Source: Candidatus Woesebacteria bacterium
GTDB taxonomy: Bacteria > Patescibacteriota > Microgenomatia > UBA1400 > MFAQ01
DNA: 64,000 bases
Reading direction: 5' to 3'
Assembly: GCA_035389185.1 (NCBI GenBank)
Contig: DAOORK010000001.1
Span: 695,419-759,418, forward strand
Shown: positions 6,178-61,744 of the stretch, in pieces
How positions within the stretch are numbered: position 1 is the stretch's first letter
How the letters are laid out: each line of letters begins with the position of its first letter
Translations under genes and position numbers: made by a program
The notes under the pieces: model-generated
What the model was told of the DNA's origin: nothing
The model's database searches: none
What the model saw: the letters and a program-made list of their open reading frames with translations, nothing else

Positions 6178-6251
6178 GGGCCGATAGCTCAGCTGGTTAG
6201 AGCGCGAAGCTTATACCTTCGATGTCCCAGGTCCGAATCCTGGTCGGCCCA
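6178..6251 (+). tRNA. tRNA-Ile (anticodon UAU), no encoded CCA; T-loop reads TCCGAAT (C at position 55)
   Basis: Cloverleaf: acceptor GGGCCGA/TCGGCCC, D-arm GCTC-AGCTGGTTA-GAGC, anticodon stem CGAAG/CTTCG with loop CTTATAC (anticodon TAT), T-arm CCAGG-TCCGAAT-CCTGG, discriminator A. Confidence 0.7.
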
Positions 6252-6255
6252 CATA

Positions 6256-7571: not shown

Positions 7572-7952
7572 ATGCAAGCCCCTATTATAAAGGAAAATTA
7601 TAAAGATAAAAAAGGTTGGGTTAGGGCGATTTTTTTGATGATTGCATGGGTTGTCATTATCTCGCTTGTTAAGGACTTGTGGCAGATAAAAAAAGGCTTT
7701 GTTCGAGTTGAAGAATCAAAACAAAGATTAGCCGAAGTCGAAGGTGAGAACCGGGAGTTAAAAAATAAACTAGAGATGGTAACGACCGAGGAGTATCAGG
7801 AGTATTTGATCAGAGAACAGCTAAATATGCATAAAACAGGAGAAGTAATTGCGGTGTTACCAAAAGGGAAAATGGCCGGAGATACCGTGGCTACAGAGTC
7901 TGGAGAGCCAAAAACAAAGAATTGGGAGAAGTGGTGGTCACTTCTCAAATAG
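7572..7952 (+). CDS. Septum formation initiator family protein (FtsB/DivIC-like)
   Basis: N-terminal TM helix followed by a coiled coil (LAEVEGENRELKNKLEMVTTEEYQEYLIREQLNM), typical of FtsB/DivIC. Confidence 0.6.
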   Translation: MQAPIIKENYKDKKGWVRAIFLMIAWVVIISLVKDLWQIKKGFVRVEESKQRLAEVEGENRELKNKLEMVTTEEYQEYLIREQLNMHKTGEVIAVLPKGKMAGDTVATESGEPKTKNWEKWWSLLK

Positions 7953-8025
7953 TTGCGGGGCCGGGGTTTCGATCCCCGGTTAAGCGAGATTATGAGCCTC
8001 GCAAGATACCTACCTTCCCCCCGCA
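7953..8025 (-). tRNA. tRNA-Met-like (anticodon CAU), atypical: short D-loop and T-loop ATCGAAA (A54/A60)
   Basis: Minus-strand sequence TGCGGGG-GG-AAGG-TAGGTA-TCTT-G-CGAGG-CTCATAA-TCTCG-CTTAA-CCGGGG-ATCGAAA-CCCCGG-CCCCGCA-A. The acceptor pairs 7/7 and the anticodon loop is CTCATAA. The fold needs a 6-bp T-stem or an irregular junction. It abuts the stop of the convergent ftsB-like CDS. Confidence 0.5.
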
Positions 8026-8094: not shown

Positions 8095-8168
8095 GGCAAG
8101 GTAGCTCAAATGGTTAGAGCGGCGGATTCATAAACCGCAGGTAGTGGGTTCGATCCCCACCCTTGCTA
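8095..8168 (+). tRNA. tRNA-Met (anticodon CAU)
   Basis: GGCAAGG-TA-GCTC-AAATGGTTA-GAGC-G-GCGGA-TTCATAA-ACCGC-AGGTA-GTGGG-TTCGATC-CCCAC-CCTTGCT-A. Canonical T-loop. G1-U72 wobble and an A31/A39 mismatch in the anticodon stem. Confidence 0.7.
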
Positions 8169-8202
8169 CTTTTTTGTATCAGAACTGAGGTAAAATCGAA
8201 GA

Positions 8203-9201
8203 ATGAAGAAAAGAATATTAACCGGAGATCGACCAAGCGGCAGATTGCATTTGGGGCATTATGTTGGATCTTTGGAAAATAGGGTTAAGTTGCAAGATGA
8301 ATACGAGCAATTTATTTTGATTGCCGATGTACAAGCACTGACCGACAATTTTACTAATCCCCAAATCGTGGCTGATTCCGTAAAAGAACTGGTACTTGAT
8401 TATGTAGCGGCTGGTATTGACCCGGCAAAAAATACTATTGTGGTGCAGTCGAAGATGCCTGCTATTGCCGAACTGACAGTTTTCTATATGAATTTGGTGA
8501 GTTTGAATAGAGTTTTGAGAAATCCAACTGTGAAATCGGAGATTGAACAAAAAGGAATGGGTGAGTCTGTGCCTGCCGGTTTTGCCATGTACCCCGTTTC
8601 TCAGGCTGCCGATATTACGGCATTTGCGGCTGATTTGGTGCCTGTAGGCGATGATCAGTTACCGATGATTGAGCAAACCAGAGAAATTGTCAGAAAATTT
8701 AATTCCTTGTATGGTGAGATCCTAAAGGAACCGGAAGCATTATTGGGTGAGTATCCTCGTCTTGTAGGGCTGGACGGAAAAGCAAAAATGAGTAAAAGCC
8801 TTGGCAACTGCATATTTTTGTCCGACTCTGCAGAAGAAGTACAGAAAAAAGTAATGAGTATGTATACCGATCCGACGAGACTGAAACCAACCGACCCCGG
8901 AACAGTAGAAGGAAATCCGGTTTTTGTCTATCATGAGGCTTTTAATCCAAACAAAGAAGAAGTCGAAGATTTAAAAGCTCGATATCGAGCCGGAACGGTA
9001 GGTGACGTTGAAGTAAAACAAAAATTAATTGTGGCCATTAATAACTTATTGGAACCAATGAGAAAGAGAAGAGCCGAACTGGAAAGTAATCCAGAGAAAA
9101 TTGAGGCTATTTTGAGGGAGGGGGCGGAAAAGGGAAGAATGGTTTCCGGTGAAGTCTTATCGAGTGTTAAAAAGGCCATGAAGATTAACTATAATTTTTG
9201 A
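8203..9201 (+). CDS. trpS: Tryptophanyl-tRNA synthetase
   Basis: Class I motifs [15 protein letters not shown] (HIGH-type) and KMSKS. 332 aa, TrpRS-like length and sequence. Confidence 0.9.
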
Positions 9202-26820: not shown

Positions 26821-27243
26821 TTGGCAGATAAAGAAGTAACAAAGAGATTTCTTCGGGACATAAATGATTTTATCGATAAAGGTTATTACGACGACGCTAC
26901 CTCGCTATTGAGGGGTAGCAATTTTGTTGAACCCAAACAGGACTGGAATTTGGAAGTCGAAAACCTGCATAGTAATCCGATAGATGGGGAAGAGGAGATC
27001 CTAGCGAAGAAGCTGGATGTTGCCCTTTTGGAAATTGCGGAACATTTAGCTGAGGATATTAAAGTTGGGGATCCAGTGACGTACATGCGGTTAGTTCTCT
27101 GCTTAAATAAGTTAGGTAGAAATTCGCCTAAGAGATTGGTAGAGAAGGTATGGAAAATAGGACATGACTGTCTAGATCGAAATGTTGGTCCAGGTGCGAG
27201 CGGAGAAATTTTTCGTTTAATGTCTTTTCTTCCTATTGTTTGA
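26821..27243 (+). CDS. Hypothetical protein (TTG start per ORF track)
   Basis: ORF followed by an intrinsic terminator. No domain recognised. Confidence 0.35.
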   Translation: MADKEVTKRFLRDINDFIDKGYYDDATSLLRGSNFVEPKQDWNLEVENLHSNPIDGEEEILAKKLDVALLEIAEHLAEDIKVGDPVTYMRLVLCLNKLGRNSPKRLVEKVWKIGHDCLDRNVGPGASGEIFRLMSFLPIV

Positions 27244-27257
27244 TCTGAGGATATTAT

Positions 27258-27281
27258 CCCGTCTAAATTGCGGGATTTTTT
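27258..27281 (+). terminator. Rho-independent terminator (CCCG-TCTAAATT-GCGGG + T6)
   Basis: GC hairpin followed by ATTTTTTG immediately after the 26821 ORF. Confidence 0.6.
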
Positions 27282-27299
27282 GTGCGCTATAATATGGAT

Positions 27300-27458
27300 A
27301 GTGTTGATGAAGAGTCGCGATCTTCGGAGCTTGTGGAGAAATTCACCGGGGTAGCCCGATACAGCACAAAGAGTATGGAAGGGTGGTACCGTTCTATCAA
27401 GAACCCCTGACTTAAGCTAAGATGAATAATCTCGGTTTAAGTGAGGGGTTATTTTTAT
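27300..27458 (+). promoter_or_regulatory. T-box riboswitch leader controlling argS(-lysS)
   Basis: T-box sequence AAGGGTGGTACCG at 27379-27391. Canonical antiterminator: A1 AGGG(27380-83)/CCCT(27405-08), 7-nt bulge TGGTACC, A2 GTTC/GAAC with loop TATCAA. Competing terminator AACCCCTGACTTAA(27402-15)/TTAAGTGAGGGGTT(27437-50) + ATTTTTAT. Possible -10 TATAAT at 27288-27293. Confidence 0.55.
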
Positions 27459-27468
27459 ATTTATAAAA

Positions 27469-29250
27469 ATGAAAATTAAAGAAATAATTAGAGAAGCCGT
27501 GGCCGAGTTTGCCTTGGGTAAGGAGTTTGCCGTGGAACATCCAGCGGATGAAAAGATGGGTGACTATTCTACTAATATTGCGATGGTACTGGCAAAAGAA
27601 CTGGGGAGAAATCCAAGAGAGTTAGCAATAGATTTAGTAAATAAATTGTCGGACAATAAGAATCTATCTAAAATGGTTGAAAAAGACAATATTCAAGTTG
27701 CTGGTCCAGGGTTTATTAATCTTTGGATAAAAGACGAGGTGTTGATTTCGCAATTAAACGAAGCTTTGAAGACGGGTGACAAATTGGGTAATAGTGATTT
27801 TATGAAGGGTAAGAAAGTGATGGTAGAGTATAGCTCCCCCAATATTGCCAAGAGATTTTCTGTTGGCCACCTTCGATCGACAATTATTGGCCAGGCCATA
27901 TTTAATCTATATAAACATAGTGGCGGTGAAGTGACGAATGATAATCACTTGGGTGACTGGGGAACACAGTTTGGAATGATTATTGCAGCGATTGAGGAAG
28001 ATGCAAATTTTAACTGGGACAGTGCAGACATCAATAAATTGGAAGAGATATATGTAGATTTTAATAAGAAAATTGAAGAAAATCCTGAGCTAAGAACTAA
28101 AGCTAAGGATGCATTTCTCCGATTGGAAAAAGGAGATGAATCAGCTCGTAATATTTGGCAAAAGTCAGTAGACATTTCGATGAAAGAGTTTGATGACATT
28201 TATAAAAAGTTGAACGTTGAATTTGAACATGTTTATGGAGAGTCGGCTTTTGAAAGCTTGATGCCTGGTGTAATTGCTGAGGCAAAAGAGAAGAATATTT
28301 CTTCTGTTGGTGAAGAAGGTGCTTTGATTGTCCGATTCGAAGATGAAAATGGGAAAGAAGAAATGCCTCCGGCAATGCTAGTAAAAAGTGACGGATCGAC
28401 AACTTATTTCACAAGAGATTTGGCGACGATAAAAATGAGATTAACCATGCCAGAACTAAAGTGCGATGAATATATATACGAAGTGGGTGGAGAGCAAAGA
28501 CTGCACCTGAAACAAGTATTTGCGACCGCTAGAAAACTGTGGCCTGAAGAAACAAAAAGGGTGGAGTTTGTGCATGTGGCTCATGGGTTATTGAGTTTGC
28601 CTGAAGGGAAAATGAGTACCAGAAAAGGAAACACAATAAAGTTGGAGGATCTATTGGGTTGGGCTGAAAAAAAATCATTTAATATTACTTCCGATAAGGC
28701 AGGATTTGAAATGAAAGATGATTATTGGTTAACAAATAAAAATCAGAACTTATGGCCACACGACGTTGTGAATATGTCCGAAACAATGTCCATTGGAGCT
28801 GTGAAATATAACGAACTTAAGAGATCTCCAATAATGGACTATGTATTTGTAAAAGAAGAGGCAATTTCGATGGACGGGAATAGTGCACCGTATTTGCAGT
28901 ATGTGTATGTAAGAACAAGAGGAGTGTTGAATAAGCTTGGAGAGAACCTTGATAAGGTGATTGCAGGCAAAAAAGAGTTTGAGAACGATGATGAACGAAT
29001 TTTGGCAAGATGGTTGCTATTGAGATTTGTTGAGGGGGAAGTAGTGGAGTCTGCGGCCAGGAACTTTGCACCACAAACTGTATGTGCGTATCTATTTGAG
29101 ACGGCTCAAAAATTCAACGGATTTTATGAAAGAAACAAAGTAGTTGGAGTTGAAAACCAGAGTCTAAGACTAGCCTTGACAGCATTGACCGGCGAAGTAA
29201 TTAAAAAAGGTCTGAAGATTTTGGGAATTGAGACAGTGGAGAAGATGTAA
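27469..29250 (+). CDS. argS: Arginyl-tRNA synthetase
   Basis: 593 aa with class I core, ArgRS-specific N-terminal add-1 domain and a C-terminal ...ETVEKM ending typical of ArgRS. Confidence 0.9.
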   Translation: MKIKEIIREAVAEFALGKEFAVEHPADEKMGDYSTNIAMVLAKELGRNPRELAIDLVNKLSDNKNLSKMVEKDNIQVAGPGFINLWIKDEVLISQLNEALKTGDKLGNSDFMKGKKVMVEYSSPNIAKRFSVGHLRSTIIGQAIFNLYKHSGGEVTNDNHLGDWGTQFGMIIAAIEEDANFNWDSADINKLEEIYVDFNKKIEENPELRTKAKDAFLRLEKGDESARNIWQKSVDISMKEFDDIYKKLNVEFEHVYGESAFESLMPGVIAEAKEKNISSVGEEGALIVRFEDENGKEEMPPAMLVKSDGSTTYFTRDLATIKMRLTMPELKCDEYIYEVGGEQRLHLKQVFATARKLWPEETKRVEFVHVAHGLLSLPEGKMSTRKGNTIKLEDLLGWAEKKSFNITSDKAGFEMKDDYWLTNKNQNLWPHDVVNMSETMSIGAVKYNELKRSPIMDYVFVKEEAISMDGNSAPYLQYVYVRTRGVLNKLGENLDKVIAGKKEFENDDERILARWLLLRFVEGEVVESAARNFAPQTVCAYLFETAQKFNGFYERNKVVGVENQSLRLALTALTGEVIKKGLKILGIETVEKM

Positions 29251-29267: not shown

Positions 29268-30746
29268 ATGGCAAGCAGACTAGAGGAAATACTAAAAGAA
29301 CGGGAAAAGAAGATTGAAGCCCTTAAAAAAATGGGGATTGATTTGTATCCTGCGCGCTCCATAAAAGAAGCTTCCAATATGGAAGTGGTGGAGAATTTTG
29401 AAAAATACGAAGGGAAGACATTAACCTTGGCCGGAAGAATAATGGCCTGGAGGGAGCATGGCAAACTAATTTTTGGGCAGATTCAGGATCAAAGTGGCAG
29501 AATACAACTGTTTATCAGACAAGACATGATGGGTGCTCGTGATCAGGCCAAACAAACCTTGGGATTTGATGATTTGGAGCTCTTGGATATTGGGGACATC
29601 ATTCAAACAACCGGAGAGATTGTAAAAACCAGAACAGGAGAAGTGTCTGTTCAGGTAAAAGAAATTAAAATGCTGACGAAGGCGAGACTACCCTTACCTG
29701 AAAAATGGGTAGGAATTGTGGATCCGGATGACGCTTTCCGAAAGAGATACCTAGACCTTTTAATGGATCAGGGCAAGATTAGAAGGTTTGAGAGAAAGGC
29801 TAAATTTTGGGCTGAGTGTCGAAAGTTTATGGCCTCCAAAGGATTTATGGAGGTGGAAACGCCAGTGTTGGAGTCGGTGACTGGGGGAGCAGACGCCAGA
29901 CCATTTGTGACTCACATGAACTCGATTGATCAGGATTTTTATATGCGAATTTCGACCGAACTTTATCAAAAGAGACTCATTGGCGCCGGTTTCGAAAAGA
30001 TATACACACTAGCTCCGAACTTTCGTAATGAGGGAATGGATGACGAACATTTGCCGGAGTATTACTCTTTGGAGTGGTACTGGGCTTTCGCAGACTACAG
30101 AGACAATATGCAACTAACTCGTGAACTCTACCGACACATTGCCAAAGAAGTATATGGGAAAACTAAGTTTGTAAGTGGAGGAATGGAGTTTGATTTGGCC
30201 GACGATTGGGAAGAAATTGACTATTTGAAAGTAATTAAAGAAAAGGTTGGAATTGATATTGTGAATTCGACGGATGAGGAAATGAAAGAAGCGATCAAAA
30301 AAGCGGGAGTGAGACTGACTGGAGAAATTAATAGGGCTCGTCTTATTGATAACTGTTGGAAGATTGTCCGCAAAACAATTGCCGGACCGGCATTCCTTTT
30401 AAATGAGCCAAAATTTATGTCGCCCTTGGCCAAGAGTAAACCAGAAGATCCGGAAATAACGGAAAGATTCCATATAATTTTGGCAGGATCCGAGCAGGGA
30501 AATGGCTATTCGGAACTTAATGATCCAGTTGATCAAAAAGAGAGATTTGAAGAGCAGCAAAAAGGAAGAGATAAGGGAGACGAGGAAGCTCAAATGATGG
30601 ATACAGACTTTGTGGAAATGCTTTCATATGGAATGCCGCCAACTTCCGGATTTGGAATGTCAGAGCGACTTTTCTGGGCGATGGAAGACATTTCCGCTCG
30701 TGAGGGAACGCTATTTCCTCCACTTCGTGTTAAGAGGGAAGGATAA
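29268..30746 (+). CDS. lysS: Lysyl-tRNA synthetase (class II)
   Basis: N-terminal OB anticodon-binding domain and class II motifs 2/3 (FRNEGMDDEHLPEY, GMGIDR-type ...GFGMSERL). Confidence 0.9.
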   Translation: MASRLEEILKEREKKIEALKKMGIDLYPARSIKEASNMEVVENFEKYEGKTLTLAGRIMAWREHGKLIFGQIQDQSGRIQLFIRQDMMGARDQAKQTLGFDDLELLDIGDIIQTTGEIVKTRTGEVSVQVKEIKMLTKARLPLPEKWVGIVDPDDAFRKRYLDLLMDQGKIRRFERKAKFWAECRKFMASKGFMEVETPVLESVTGGADARPFVTHMNSIDQDFYMRISTELYQKRLIGAGFEKIYTLAPNFRNEGMDDEHLPEYYSLEWYWAFADYRDNMQLTRELYRHIAKEVYGKTKFVSGGMEFDLADDWEEIDYLKVIKEKVGIDIVNSTDEEMKEAIKKAGVRLTGEINRARLIDNCWKIVRKTIAGPAFLLNEPKFMSPLAKSKPEDPEITERFHIILAGSEQGNGYSELNDPVDQKERFEEQQKGRDKGDEEAQMMDTDFVEMLSYGMPPTSGFGMSERLFWAMEDISAREGTLFPPLRVKREG

Positions 30747-31121: not shown

Positions 31122-31159
31122 AATTCCTCCAAAGAGAATTAGATTTTTAAGGTGATGGT

Positions 31160-31188
31160 ATTGTACACCCTATAGTGTGATTTGTCAA
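31160..31188 (-). promoter_or_regulatory. Sigma70-type consensus promoter (TTGACA-17-TACAAT) for the 30780..31121 gene
   Basis: Perfect -35 and near-perfect -10 hexamers with 17-nt spacing, read on the minus strand. Confidence 0.5.
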
Positions 31189-31254
31189 GCCTGTAGGTAT
31201 GGATTTGAGAGTGATATACTTAGGGTATAAGTGAATTGCTTTGGCGATCCGATT

Positions 31255-31365
31255 ACCGACCGGGGAGAAGCAGGGAGAAAGCACCAACGCTTTGAATTAA
31301 GAGGCTACCTAGCAAGCAAGATGGAACCGTCCGAAAGGACTCTTGTGAGAAGGGTAGTTTTTTGT
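31255..31365 (+). promoter_or_regulatory. T-box-like leader upstream of thrS (candidate)
   Basis: Antiterminator-like geometry AAGA(31318-21)-TGGAACC-GTCC-GAAA-GGAC-TCTT(31341-44), then ACTCTT/AAGGGT hairpin + T6 (31358-63). ACC (Thr codon) lies in a GAAAGCACCAACG context at 31283-85. No full GGGTGG T-box consensus. Confidence 0.35.
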
Positions 31366-31389
31366 TATTAACATATTATTCATCGCCTT

Positions 31390-33171
31390 TTGGCTCAAAC
31401 AAAAATGGAAGAAACGAAACTGCATGCACTGAGACACAGTGCCGAACACATATTAACTCAAGCAATGGAGAAGATTTGGCCTGGCCAAATCATTAAGGCC
31501 ATGGGTCCTGCTATCGATACCGGATTTTATTTTGACTTTGACACAACAAATGGTTTTAAAGTAACCGAGAATGATTTCCCCAAGATCGAGAAAGAGATGA
31601 AGAAGATTGTTCAACTTAATTTACCTTTTGAAAAACATATTGTGACGGCGGAGAAAGCAAGAGAAATGTTTGCCGACAATCCATATAAACAGGAATGGAT
31701 AGACAAAGCGGAAAAAGATGGAGAGGAAATTTTTGTTTACTGGACGGGTGACCCCGGAAAGGGAGGCTCGTTTGTGGATGTTTGTGCCGGACCTCATGTG
31801 GCTAAAACTATTGAAGTAAAAGCATTTAAACTCTTGTCGATTGCCGGAGCTTATTGGCACGGAGATGAGAAGAATAAGATGCTGACAAGAATTTACGGCA
31901 CGGCTTTCGAGACACAAAAGGAACTCGATAATTATGTTTCTCTTTTGGAAGAAGCCAAAAAAAGAGATCACAGAAAACTAGGTAAAGAGATGGATCTATT
32001 TTCATTTTCAGACCTAATTGGAAGTGGACTGCCTCTGTATTCACCGAAAGGAGCTTTTATCAGAAGAACATTAAATAATTTTGTGGAAGAGATGCAGATT
32101 GCGGAAGGATATACCCAAGTATGGACACCGCAAATTGCAAAGGCAGAACTATTTAAGACTTCAGGACATTACGACAAATATAAAGACTCGATGTTTCGGG
32201 TAGTTTCCAATTACTCCGACGAAGAGATGTTCTTGAAACCAATGAACTGCCCACAACACACACAGATTTTTGCGGCGCAGGCAAGAAGTTATCGTGATTT
32301 GCCTTTGAGATTGACCGACTTCGCCATGCTTTACCGCGATGAGAAACCAGGTGAGTTGTCTGGACTGGCTCGAGCAAGAGCTTTCTCTCAGGATGACTGC
32401 CATATTTTTTGTCGAGAAGATCAGGTGGATGACGAGATAGATATGGCTCTACAGATGACGAAGAAAATTATGGCAACCTTCGGATTTAAATATAAATACC
32501 GACTGTCGACGAGAGACCCACAACACCCAGAAAAATACTTGGGTGACCCGAAAGTGTGGAACAAAGTAGAAAAATGGGCGGAGATTATTATGGAGAGAAA
32601 CCAGATTGAGTATTTCCAGGGACCAGGTGAAGCAGCCTTTTATGCTCCGAAGATGGATCTGATTGCCACCGATGCTCTGGGAAGGGAGTGGCAACTATCG
32701 ACAGTACAAATTGACTTTGTGATGCCGGAGAGGTTTGGACTAGTTTATACCGACCAAGATGGGACTCAGAAACACCCAGTGATGTTACATCGAGCAATTA
32801 TCGGATCAGCAGAACGGATGATGATGATTTTGATTGAACATTTTGGCGGAGCCTTCCCAACATGGTTGTCTCCGGTTCAAGTGGCCGTACTACCTATTTC
32901 CGAAAAAACGATGGAATATTCGGCAGAAGTAGCTGAGAAACTGCAGAAACAAGGAATCAGGGTAGAACTTAATACCGATGCTGACTCTTTGGGTAAAAAA
33001 ATTCGCAATGCTGAAGCTTCCAAAGTGCCATATATGCTAATCATTGGTGAAAAAGAAGCCGAGGCAAAAGAGGTTTCTGTTCGCCAACGAGGTCAAAAAG
33101 ATTTAGGAACAATGAAAGTCTCTGATTTTGCTGAGAAAGTGATTAAAGAAGTGGAGGAGAAGAGTCTGTAA
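31390..33171 (+). CDS. thrS: Threonyl-tRNA synthetase (lacks N-terminal TGS/N1 domain)
   Basis: Begins in the N2 editing domain (LRHSAEHIL HxxxH motif), then class II catalytic core and C-terminal anticodon-binding domain. A start at ATG 31405 is possible. Confidence 0.9.
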   Translation: MAQTKMEETKLHALRHSAEHILTQAMEKIWPGQIIKAMGPAIDTGFYFDFDTTNGFKVTENDFPKIEKEMKKIVQLNLPFEKHIVTAEKAREMFADNPYKQEWIDKAEKDGEEIFVYWTGDPGKGGSFVDVCAGPHVAKTIEVKAFKLLSIAGAYWHGDEKNKMLTRIYGTAFETQKELDNYVSLLEEAKKRDHRKLGKEMDLFSFSDLIGSGLPLYSPKGAFIRRTLNNFVEEMQIAEGYTQVWTPQIAKAELFKTSGHYDKYKDSMFRVVSNYSDEEMFLKPMNCPQHTQIFAAQARSYRDLPLRLTDFAMLYRDEKPGELSGLARARAFSQDDCHIFCREDQVDDEIDMALQMTKKIMATFGFKYKYRLSTRDPQHPEKYLGDPKVWNKVEKWAEIIMERNQIEYFQGPGEAAFYAPKMDLIATDALGREWQLSTVQIDFVMPERFGLVYTDQDGTQKHPVMLHRAIIGSAERMMMILIEHFGGAFPTWLSPVQVAVLPISEKTMEYSAEVAEKLQKQGIRVELNTDADSLGKKIRNAEASKVPYMLIIGEKEAEAKEVSVRQRGQKDLGTMKVSDFAEKVIKEVEEKSL

Positions 33172-47558: not shown

Positions 47559-48446
47559 ATGAAAAAAGTATTGATGGGACTTGCTATTTTGCTGGTTGTT
47601 TGGGGTGTGTTTTTAACACCAAAAACTCTAGCAGTAGCTGAGGAAATTACGCCCCAAATTGAAACTGTTGAGACGGCAACACTGGCTGCCGAAACGGTGC
47701 CAGTTAAAGAAATTGACTTAACTGTACCTACTCAAGAAGGTGACCGATTAACAAAACTCTTAAATGGTCAAAAACTTTCCGGATGGTGGGGTAAAGATGT
47801 GTTGAAGATTGCTATGCGAAAAGCTGTATCTGAAGGAGTGTCTCCAAACACTTTAGTATTACTCTTCTTATTCCCTCTTGTGGCCGCTTTGGTGGCTTTT
47901 TCCCGTCAAGTTGTAGGTGTCTCTGGATTTGGAATAATTACTCCAGCATTACTTTCGGTGGCTTTCTTGTCTACTGGAGGATTGGTAGGTATGGTGTTGA
48001 TGATTTTTATCTTGGGAGTAGCCACTTTTGCCAGATCACTTATTAAAAAAATAAAGATTCCTTATCTATCCAAATTGGCAATTTTAATCTGGATTATTTC
48101 AATGGCAGTACTGGTTTTACTTCTGGTGTCACCAATGATTGGACTTGAAAGACTTATGAGTGTAGGTATTTTTCCGATTATGCTGTTTGTACTTTTGGCC
48201 GAGACTTTTATCGAAGCTCAGATCACCAGAAGCGTATCTACTTCTATGTGGATGACAATCGAAACAGTTATTTTGGCTTTGGTGGCTTACAAGTTATTGA
48301 GTGCTCCCTGGATTCAGTCTCAAGTGATACTTCATCCAGAAATTTCTGTAATTGTAATTTTGATTGTCGACCTTTTGATTGGTAGATATAAAGGTTTGAG
48401 ATTATCTGAGGTTTGGAGATTTAGAAAAATTGTATATAGAAAATGA
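47559..48446 (+). CDS. Signal-peptide-bearing 7-TM membrane protein (7TM_transglut-like, no transglutaminase domain)
   Basis: Cleavable-looking signal peptide, ~90-aa extracytoplasmic segment, then seven hydrophobic helices. Overlaps the ATP-grasp gene by 4 bp (atga). Confidence 0.5.
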   Translation: MKKVLMGLAILLVVWGVFLTPKTLAVAEEITPQIETVETATLAAETVPVKEIDLTVPTQEGDRLTKLLNGQKLSGWWGKDVLKIAMRKAVSEGVSPNTLVLLFLFPLVAALVAFSRQVVGVSGFGIITPALLSVAFLSTGGLVGMVLMIFILGVATFARSLIKKIKIPYLSKLAILIWIISMAVLVLLLVSPMIGLERLMSVGIFPIMLFVLLAETFIEAQITRSVSTSMWMTIETVILALVAYKLLSAPWIQSQVILHPEISVIVILIVDLLIGRYKGLRLSEVWRFRKIVYRK

Positions 48447-58195: not shown

Positions 58196-59684
<1,489 letters not shown>

Positions 59685-61551: not shown

Positions 61552-61588
61552 GTACAAAAGATCCCGCCATAAAGGCGAGATCTTATTG

Positions 61589-61661
61589 TGGGCGCTCATG
61601 GGGTCGAACCATGCACCTCGGTCTTATCAGGACCGCGCTCTAACCAGATGAGCTAAGCGCC
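61589..61661 (-). tRNA. tRNA-Ile (anticodon GAU)
   Basis: Minus strand GGGCGCT-TA-GCTC-ATCTGGTTA-GAGC-G-CGGTC-CTGATAA-GACCG-AGGTG-CATGG-TTCGACC-CCATG-AGCGCCC-A. Confidence 0.85.
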
Positions 61662-61744
61662 CAAACAACTCAGATATTTTATCACATGAGGCTAATTCGT
61701 GGTAGAATCATGGGGCAAATTAAAATCTGTTTTAGGAGGATGAC

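Follow-up and report, generated by a model that had tools for sequence, protein, structure and literature searches.

T-boxes are a model system for RNA sensing of tRNA charging. Those acting on transcription generally require a long Stem I, and Stem III, set in the motif 5'-RRRxG-Stem III-AA-3', is indispensable for binding of the tRNA 3' end (PMC7583486). The T-box sequence itself has a 14-nucleotide (nt) consensus, AGGGUGGNACCGCG (PMC11297988). The closest described systems to the locus studied here are class I T-boxes, represented in Rfam by the model RF00230 and typified by the argS leader of Bacillus sp. N5-665 (L100 260-474) and the thrS leaders of Listeria, Clostridium and Anoxybacillus (L094-L096); the translational class II T-boxes of actinobacterial ileS genes (Mycobacterium, Nocardia), whose short Stem I carries the specifier in its apical loop (PMC7583486, PMC11297988); and the glyQS T-boxes, minimal class I forms without Stem II and pseudoknot (PMC7583486). 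Here we describe a leader RNA at positions 27300-27458 (+ strand) of a 64-kb stretch of a Candidatus Woesebacteria genome (candidate phyla radiation, CPR), hereafter called the window. The leader lies upstream of argS, and from its sequence and that of its homologues we judge it very probable that it is a miniaturised T-box-type riboswitch, controlling transcription of argS, and most likely of lysS, by sensing the charging of tRNA-Arg. A sister leader precedes thrS.

Proposed switch and specifier of the argS leader

The leader contains the T-box core AAGGGUGGUACCG, and GGGTGGTACCG at 27381-27391 is the sole exact match to GGGTGGNACCG on either strand of the window. Compared with the 14-nt consensus, AGGGUGGUACCGUU at 27380-93 agrees at 12 of 14 positions, both departures sitting in helix A2, where the pairing partners differ here too. 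The antiterminator occupies 27380-27408 and consists of helix A1 (AGGG/CCCU, 27380-83 with 27405-08), a 7-nt bulge UGGUACC (27384-90) and helix A2 (GUUC/GAAC, 27391-94 with 27401-04) closed by a loop at 27395-400; alone, it folds at -7.2 kcal/mol. The terminator (27402-27456) is a hairpin at 27402-27450 with 20 pairs and two 1x1 mismatches (-28.5 kcal/mol), followed by an A and five U residues at 27452-56, and its stem ends 18 nt before the argS ATG at 27469. Since both structures use nt 27402-08, they are mutually exclusive. A weak antiterminator and a strong terminator joined by a common strand are the energetics expected of a T-box. An earlier reading of this DNA, made from the sequence alone, had proposed this core, this antiterminator and this competing terminator with its U-run, and all are present as proposed. 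The whole leader has a fold z score of -4.9 against dinucleotide-preserving shuffles, a value reached by none of 200.

Scanning the window for the arrangement A1-UGGNACC-A2-A1' returned the argS and thrS leaders plus one antisense chance match, about 0.5 being expected by chance; the core-scan match at 47702 (- strand) lies inside a coding region and was set aside as chance. In the nascent leader, the minimum free energy (MFE) fold of 27374-27399 pairs AUGGAA with UUCUAU and GGU with ACC, burying the T-box bulge in a local hairpin that has partial equivalents in L083 and L002 (related loci are cited by number where they need to be told apart). This modelled hairpin might work as an anti-antiterminator. 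The single-sequence MFE fold also suggested GUGUUG/CAGCAC as an outer closing helix, which was dropped as it is broken in L083 and L002.

The 5' part of the leader (27300-27331) is assigned from covariation and sequence pattern to an ultrashort Stem I with a kink-turn (K-turn). Across the homologues the layout is an AGY C-helix, a 3-nt loop, GA, a helix of 4-5 base pairs (bp), an apical loop of 8-9 nt, the return strand, GA and GCU. In the window these correspond to a C-helix at 27300-02 with 27329-31, a loop at 27303-05, tandem G.A pairs between GA 27306-07 and GA 27327-28, a 5-bp helix at 27308-12 with 27322-26, and a 9-nt apical loop, AGUCGCGAU, at 27313-21. The GA pattern and a covarying C-helix are found in all argS and thrS leaders, often with a non-Watson-Crick pair beside the G.A; the exceptions, on the non-bulged strand, are GG in L002 and UA in L003. 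In the argS family the helix above the K-turn has two doubly changed pairs and 100% of cells paired. The pattern suggests that Stem I would adopt the three-dimensional fold of a K-turn. Its strands, UUGAUGAAG...CUUCGGAG in the CPR argS leader, are nearly equal to GUGAUGAAG...CUUCGGAG in the Bacillus argS T-box.

The apical loop holds the Arg codon CGC at 27316-27318, followed by the purines G27319 and A27320. It reads AGUCGCGAU in the window, AGCCGCGAC in L086 and AGUCGCGC in L002, CGC-G being invariant, and the triplet is identical in 6/6 argS leaders while flanking loop bases vary. Because CGC is invariant before argS and is replaced by ACC in the homologous thrS leaders, we take it to be the putative specifier that would read tRNA-Arg. 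The AGA triplets put forward as specifiers by the sequence-only reading (27311-13 and 27336-38) do not hold up: they lie in helices and are not conserved in the homologous leaders. The loop triplet thus follows the regulated gene: the loop positions that hold CGC in argS leaders hold ACC in thrS leaders, and for a fixed position in the loop the probability that both families show a cognate codon by chance is 0.006. These are the commonest specifiers known for their amino acids, CGC making up 52% of Arg and ACC 60% of Thr specifiers (TBDB Table 1, PMC7778990), and both fit the 'C rule' (PMC7583486).

The variable base of the bulge changes together with the triplet, being U in argS leaders (UGGU) and A in thrS leaders (UGGA). 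The same pairs are found in canonical T-boxes: three Firmicutes thrS controls combine ACC with UGGAACC, and the Bacillus argS T-box combines CGC with UGGUACC. By this analogy there is indirect evidence that the bulge base would fit the discriminator base of the cognate tRNA.

Downstream of Stem I, hairpin P2 (GUGGA-GAAA-UUCAC, 27333-27346) takes the Stem II position. Three of its five pairs are compensated, for example GUAAG/CUUAC in L086 and GUGAA/UUCAU in L091, and it would correspond to Stem II, with no S-turn recognised in P2 of the argS leader. The next 21 nt (27347-27367) are compatible with a pseudoknot like Stem IIA/B, with helix A formed by 27347-49 and 27356-58 and helix B by 27351-52 plus 27354-55 with 27364-67. 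The segment includes an F-box-like CCGAUA (27356-61), conserved across argS leaders as CCGNNA (CCGAUA, CCGAAA, CCGAGA, CCGUAA). GUAGC...GCAC is invariant in all copies, and L002 and L093 add five pairs (GUAGCUCCA/UGGAGCAC). Since the paired bases never vary in argS leaders and so give no covariation, a pseudoknot at 27347-67 is only a possibility. A purine string, AAAGAG (27368-73), a 4-nt linker UAUG and GA then lead up to 27379. The order AAAGAG-linker-GA/AA is kept in all argS leaders, and AAGAG...AA likewise in thrS leaders, so that the flanks of Stem III (AAGAG...GA/AA) are present with only 4-6 unpaired nt between them in argS leaders.

If these elements act as their canonical counterparts do, the first 32 nt would fold into a K-turn topped by the 5-bp stem, whose apical loop would present CGC to the anticodon of tRNA-Arg, with the small hairpin, the pseudoknot-like element and the purine string following. 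When uncharged tRNA-Arg is bound, its 3'-ACCA would pair with UGGU of the 7-nt bulge and stabilise A1/A2, and the polymerase would read into argS-lysS. When the tRNA is charged or absent, 27402-08 would join the stronger terminator and transcription would end at the U-run. That the leader binds tRNA and discriminates its charge is what we infer from this layout.

Conservation before argS and thrS

We examined the contigs of some 35 ArgS proteins with 69-83% identity to the window ArgS. The relatives are labelled Microgenomates, WWE3 and Collierbacteria, in keeping with the earlier suggestion that the DNA comes from a CPR-type genome, and the gene order trxB-(...)-argS-lysS-(...)-thrS is kept among them. 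The gap before argS is either 5-17 nt (L082, L085, L088-90, L092) or 170-330 nt (L083/84, L086/87, L091, L002, L093), and the same element is found in every long gap. This gives five further distinct loci with an argS leader (L083, L086, L091, L002 and L093); the contig P0003 has a 219-nt gap before argS. A covariance model built from four argS leaders (R1) scores the homologous argS leaders at E = 8e-11 to 4e-36, including the divergent L002 and L093 at about 1e-10, whose ArgS is only 58% identical to that of the window and is fused to a B3/B4 domain. A weak R1 match at 8491-8598 of the window lies inside a coding region and was discarded as chance. Scanning genome contigs with ArgS gave a single locus, Collierbacteria L001, whose argS is fused and lacks the leader; metagenome contigs, scanned with rather general ArgS peptide patterns, yielded mainly distant bacteria and L002 as the one useful locus, and a pattern search of viral contigs gave no match.

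In these Collierbacteria-like genomes the N-terminus of ArgRS is fused to B3/B4 (PF03483), known from the PheRS beta subunit as its tRNA-binding domain, and the proteins are 765-854 amino acids long (L001 2143-4452, L002 1631-4195, L093 2501-5041). The fusion genes of L002 and L093 retain the T-box-like leader. The source label of the L091 ArgS (GCA_035477615.1, DATIKJ010000051.1) is 'Spirochaetia bacterium'; because its gene order, its ArgS identity of 74% and both its leaders fit the CPR loci, the label of this bin is probably wrong.

The argS leader is more conserved than the adjacent coding DNA, with identities of 94/89/83% against 77/74/73%. In a structure-guided alignment of six argS leaders (A7), 98% of cells are paired and six pairs are doubly changed, compared with 0-2 when partners are slid by 1-3 columns; the 11 doubly changed cells exceed a shuffled mean of 3.6 and are reached in 0/500 shuffles. 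RNAalifold recovers the terminator in the six leaders; one pair is compensated (U-A to C-G, L086), and there are several changes on one side only. Helix A2 of L002 and L093 is longer and altered (GUCCUUC-CGGC...GCCG-...GAAGAC), its pairing kept around an unchanged UGGUACC.

The sister element before thrS appeared as a weak full-length R1 match (20 bits, E = 0.0085) in L002, downstream of lysS and upstream of thrS. Searching for UGGNACC placed it in the window and in L003, L082, L083 and L088-L093, including genomes without the argS leader, so that it is present in 10/10 related CPR genomes whose sequence reaches thrS. In the window it spans 31215-31363 (+ strand), upstream of the thrS ATG at 31405. 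From 5' to 3' it comprises a -10 hexamer (31215-20), a K-turn Stem I (31237-72) whose apical loop AUUACCGAC (31252-60) holds ACC at 31255-57, hairpin 2 (31278-93), AAGAG (31299-303), a mini Stem III (31304-13), helix A1 (31316-21 with 31341-46), the bulge UGGAACC (31322-28), helix A2 (31329-40), an outer stem (31305-10 with 31351-57) and six U residues (31358-63). The apical loops of thrS leaders read AUUACCGAC, AUUACCAAC and ACUACCAAC, and ACC-R-A is invariant at the positions of CGC-G-A in the argS leaders.

To assess covariation in this family, nine distinct thrS leaders were aligned with plain MAFFT (A6). RNAalifold applied to this alignment returns the K-turn stem, the second hairpin, A1/7-nt bulge UGGAACC/A2 and the outer stem by the U-run, with 17/38 pairs compensated. 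In A6, 97.5% of cells are paired and 16/31 pairs are doubly changed, against a shuffled mean of 5.6 (0/500 reach it) and 1-6 when partners are slid. The A1-7 nt-A2 module thus occurs with other helix sequences in the nine leaders, A2 being for example GUCC/GGAC, ACCC/GGGU, CCCCGCC/GGCGGGG or GCUC/GAGU and A1 CAAGA/UCUUG or CAGGA/UCCUG. Where the argS leader has P2 and the pseudoknot-compatible segment, the thrS leaders have one hairpin. The stem of this hairpin 2 (31278-31293; also in L002 and L082-L092) covaries, and its loop is conserved as ACCAAC (ACUAAC in L088-90), which makes a second Thr triplet beside that of the Stem I loop.

The thrS leader differs from the argS leader in its switch. 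Because A1/bulge/A2 is nested within the hairpin before the U-run, the classical competition between antiterminator and terminator is absent. The outer stem CUACC/GGUAG is compensated in L003 (CCACC/GGUGG). The 5' strand of this stem overlaps 31304-13 (GCU-ACCU-AGC), a segment able to fold into a mini Stem III of 3 bp, which reads ACC-ACCA-GGU in L003, with two compensated pairs, this being one divergent lineage only. As a hypothesis only, docking of Stem III and the purines on either side of it would depend on tRNA and oppose formation of the outer stem. Pairing of AAGAG with CUCUU as an alternative A1' strand in a thrS antiterminator was dropped, as L002 and L003 cannot form it.

Returning to the argS locus, the leader lies in the gap (27244-27468) between a gene for a 140-amino-acid hypothetical protein and argS. 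An intrinsic terminator of the upstream gene at 27256-27283 (stem 27256-76, then a T-run), identified by a terminator scan and in the sequence, marks the 5' limit of the argS transcription unit. It is followed by a -10 hexamer, TATAAT, at 27288-27293, and homologous leaders have a -10-like hexamer (TAGAAT, TAAAAT; TGGTAGAAT in L002) at the same spacing to the K-turn stem. Transcription would start at about 27299-27301, some 7 nt past TATAAT. From the hexamer to the U-run the argS leader measures about 157 nt, and every segment is accounted for. No Shine-Dalgarno sequence precedes the ATG of argS (27469) or that of thrS (31405). The identity of the two genes downstream is confirmed by NCBIfam matches, to TIGR00456 (423 bits) for argS (27469-29250) and to TIGR00499 (458 bits) for lysS (29268-30746). 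The two are 17 nt apart, as had been noted from the sequence, and are adjacent in all related loci, and lysS is most likely co-transcribed with argS under the same leader.

Relation to described T-boxes and alternative explanations

RF00230 gave no match at its gathering score (93 bits) anywhere in the window. The miss is not a problem of the tool, because the same search finds canonical T-boxes: plasmid-borne Firmicutes genes used as positive controls scored 101.7-132.7 bits upstream of thrS (Anoxybacillus, Clostridium butyricum, Listeria) and 98.4-109.6 bits upstream of argS (Brevibacillus and Bacillus). No T-box was found at twenty unrelated argS loci, and low-threshold Rfam matches on both leaders and on L002 were noise (snoRNA, anti-hemB, miRNA). 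In the reciprocal direction R1 aligns to canonical T-boxes over the antiterminator core only (model positions 80-111; E 0.2-5). A local antiterminator-like R1 match at L097 452-480, upstream of argS in Limosilactobacillus fermentum, has no RF00230 match at the gathering score and may, judging from its sequence, be another T-box missed by the standard model.

The sequence-only reading had called the antiterminator textbook, and had named the lack of an RF00230 match and of a plausible Stem I with specifier loop as findings that would speak against it. The first of these is what we observe, while a K-turn stem with CGC is present. The textbook label can be upheld for the antiterminator/terminator switch; it does not extend to the leader as a whole, for which RF00230 gives no match and which lacks a long Stem I, its distal platform and Stem III.

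With class I T-boxes the CPR leader shares the T-box sequence AGGGUGGNACC, the A1/7-nt bulge/A2 module in competition with a terminator and U-run, a K-turn pattern at the base of Stem I on nearly the same strands, a cognate specifier followed by a purine, the combinations CGC with UGGU for Arg and ACC with UGGA for Thr, a purine string before A1, the F-box-like CCGNNA, and a cognate aminoacyl-tRNA synthetase as the regulated gene. It differs in its length (about 157 nt for argS against about 215-265 nt in the controls) and in a Stem I that stops at the specifier loop, every copy having a 4-5-bp helix and an 8-9-nt loop. Without an upper stem, and without the AG bulge and distal loop that form the platform of a long Stem I, it would make no contact with the tRNA elbow. 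Stem II is cut to a 5-bp GAAA hairpin without a recognisable S-turn, Stem III is missing from the argS type, the basal A2 pair is G-C rather than G.U, RF00230 does not detect the leader, and the host belongs to the CPR and not to the Firmicutes. From its sequence, the CPR argS leader looks like a canonical argS T-box from which Stem III, the greater part of Stem II and whatever lies beyond the specifier loop in Stem I have been removed.

In the class II T-boxes, too, a K-turn carries a short Stem I whose apical loop holds the specifier, there is no elbow platform, and elements in the Stem II and IIA/B-pseudoknot positions come after Stem I. They differ from the CPR leader in sequestering the ribosome-binding site and in having a complete Stem II, S-turn included, as well as a Stem III; the CPR leader has a terminator hairpin with a U-run and lacks a Shine-Dalgarno sequence. 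The glyQS T-boxes resemble it in showing that T-boxes are modular and can lose whole domains, and in a G/C-rich specifier (GGC in glyQS, CGC here), which could lower the need for lateral stabilisation; they retain, however, the long Stem I platform and Stem III, both missing from the CPR leader, which retains elements in the Stem II and pseudoknot positions. The combination of a short Stem I with transcription termination is absent from the review of T-box classes in PMC7583486. TBDB uses RF00230 and a class II model, the latter applied to Actinobacteria alone, and because of this it would, by inference, miss these CPR leaders. Searching open-access full text for T-boxes in CPR, Patescibacteria or Microgenomates found no publication, which is absence of evidence and not proof; within the same limit, this agrees with the remark in the sequence-only reading that T-box leaders are not known to have been reported from such genomes.

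Several observations weigh against a tRNA-sensing riboswitch and have to be set beside the evidence for it. RF00230 gives no match even at E<=10 on 27200-27500 (argS), 31130-31420 (thrS) or L002 1400-1700. Stem I lacks the distal platform said to be required of transcriptional T-boxes (PMC7583486), and the Stem III helix is absent from argS leaders. Instead of the G.U steric sensor, all argS leaders have G27391-C27404 as the basal pair of A2; in the thrS leaders this pair is A-U, G-C, C-G or G.U, and canonical thrS T-box controls have A-U at the base of A2, so G.U is not universal. The argS comparison comprises six sequences from two clades, four of the six being 83-94% identical, and A1 and helix B of the possible pseudoknot are invariant in this set and give no covariation signal. 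The loop sequence CGCG holds, besides the codon, an Arg anticodon, GCG. Neither tRNA-Arg nor tRNA-Thr genes were found in the window, in ten related CPR loci or in a 10-kb extension. Finally, the leader is absent from the close relatives L082, L085, L088-L090 and L092 (71-82% ArgS identity), where argS begins 5-17 nt past trxB.

The losses and the patchy distribution among close relatives are what would be expected if the RNA were a T-box-derived structured leader with a constitutive or otherwise regulated terminator and without charge sensing, responding to tRNA abundance only or decaying as a relic, the elements gone (elbow platform, Stem III, G.U pair) being among those reported as essential. 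We regard this as improbable. Strong purifying selection acts on the specifier, bulge, purine string and K-turn, which stay constant as the helices covary; the leader outdoes coding DNA in conservation; and the thrS version is kept by all ten of the related CPR genomes that reach thrS. Because close relatives do without it, the argS leader has been gained or lost repeatedly, and the thrS leader persists.

The anticodon-like triplet bears on a second explanation, namely a protein-operated attenuator in which ArgRS (ThrRS for the sister) binds a tRNA-like part of its own leader and the likeness to T-boxes is incidental. Such autoregulation of a synthetase by mRNA mimicry is established for E. 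coli thrS, where ThrRS binds the thrS operator, and in the argS loop GUCGCGA the GCG lies in a loop closable to 7 nt. At the same loop position, however, the thrS leaders show the codon ACC and not a Thr anticodon (GGU, UGU or CGU), and the explanation would leave without a role the invariant UGGNACC bulge between covarying A1 and A2, whose variable base equals that of canonical T-boxes. We consider it very unlikely.

It is also extremely unlikely that the leader is an ordinary class I T-box that scores poorly, with a long Stem I and a Stem III that went unrecognised. The T-box sequence, antiterminator and terminator are indeed textbook, and the K-turn and specifier context resemble the Bacillus argS T-box. 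Against this, the leader totals about 157 nt with all segments assigned, and RF00230, 219 positions long, gives nothing at E<=10 as against 98-133 bits for the controls. The stem above the K-turn (5 bp, with a 9-nt loop) is equally short in all copies, the 4-6 nt between the purine string and A1 leave no space for Stem III, and a start far upstream is unlikely given the upstream-gene terminator at 27256-83.

A leader-peptide attenuator, in which a short open reading frame, MLMKSRDLRSLWRNSPG (GTG at about 27301; in-frame ATG 27307 to TAG 27352-54), couples Arg-tRNA supply to the terminator, is scarcely credible: the frame does hold three Arg codons in the window (CGC, CGG, AGA), overlapping Stem I and P2, but it is not conserved (MRKSRDLPS from TTG in L086 and MKGVAPLG in L002, with different start, frame and length), it has no Shine-Dalgarno sequence, substitutions keep base pairs and not codons, and the UGGNACC bulge is left unexplained.

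A miniaturised T-box sensing the charging of tRNA-Arg therefore remains the reading we prefer for the argS leader. More tentatively, and with rather more doubt than confidence, we suggest that the two leaders may represent a third T-box class, about 130-160 nt long and terminating, which would use an apical-loop specifier and a 3'-end bulge only, without elbow contact (and without Stem III in the argS type). In the thrS type, unlike any described T-box, A1/bulge/A2 would remain folded whichever state the switch is in, and the decision would lie between a 3-bp mini Stem III and the outer stem next to the U-run, both of which need the strand CUACC.

Other genes of the window and implications

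Elsewhere in the window, a tRNA-Ile gene with anticodon UAU lies at 6178-6252 (+ strand; ARAGORN, and Rfam tRNA at 67.3 bits), near two tRNA-Met(CAU) genes at 7952-8025 and 8095-8169. Bacteria normally read AUA with lysidine-modified CAU, and a UAU anticodon is an unusual bacterial way to read this codon. A 16S rRNA gene is present at 58197-59683 (+ strand). Because no 23S gene was detected in the remaining 4.3 kb of the window and tRNA-Ile(GAU) (61588-61662) lies on the opposite (-) strand, the rRNA genes appear unlinked.

If the leaders work as proposed, the minimum sufficient to recognise a tRNA and sense its charge would be lower than now described, and engineering would gain a compact scaffold. 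RF00230-based searches (in Rfam and presumably in TBDB) would be missing whole lineages. For the organisms themselves, lysS expression in these reduced genomes would be tied to the charging of tRNA-Arg, and tRNA-sensing riboswitches would extend to the CPR, whose gene regulation is almost unknown.

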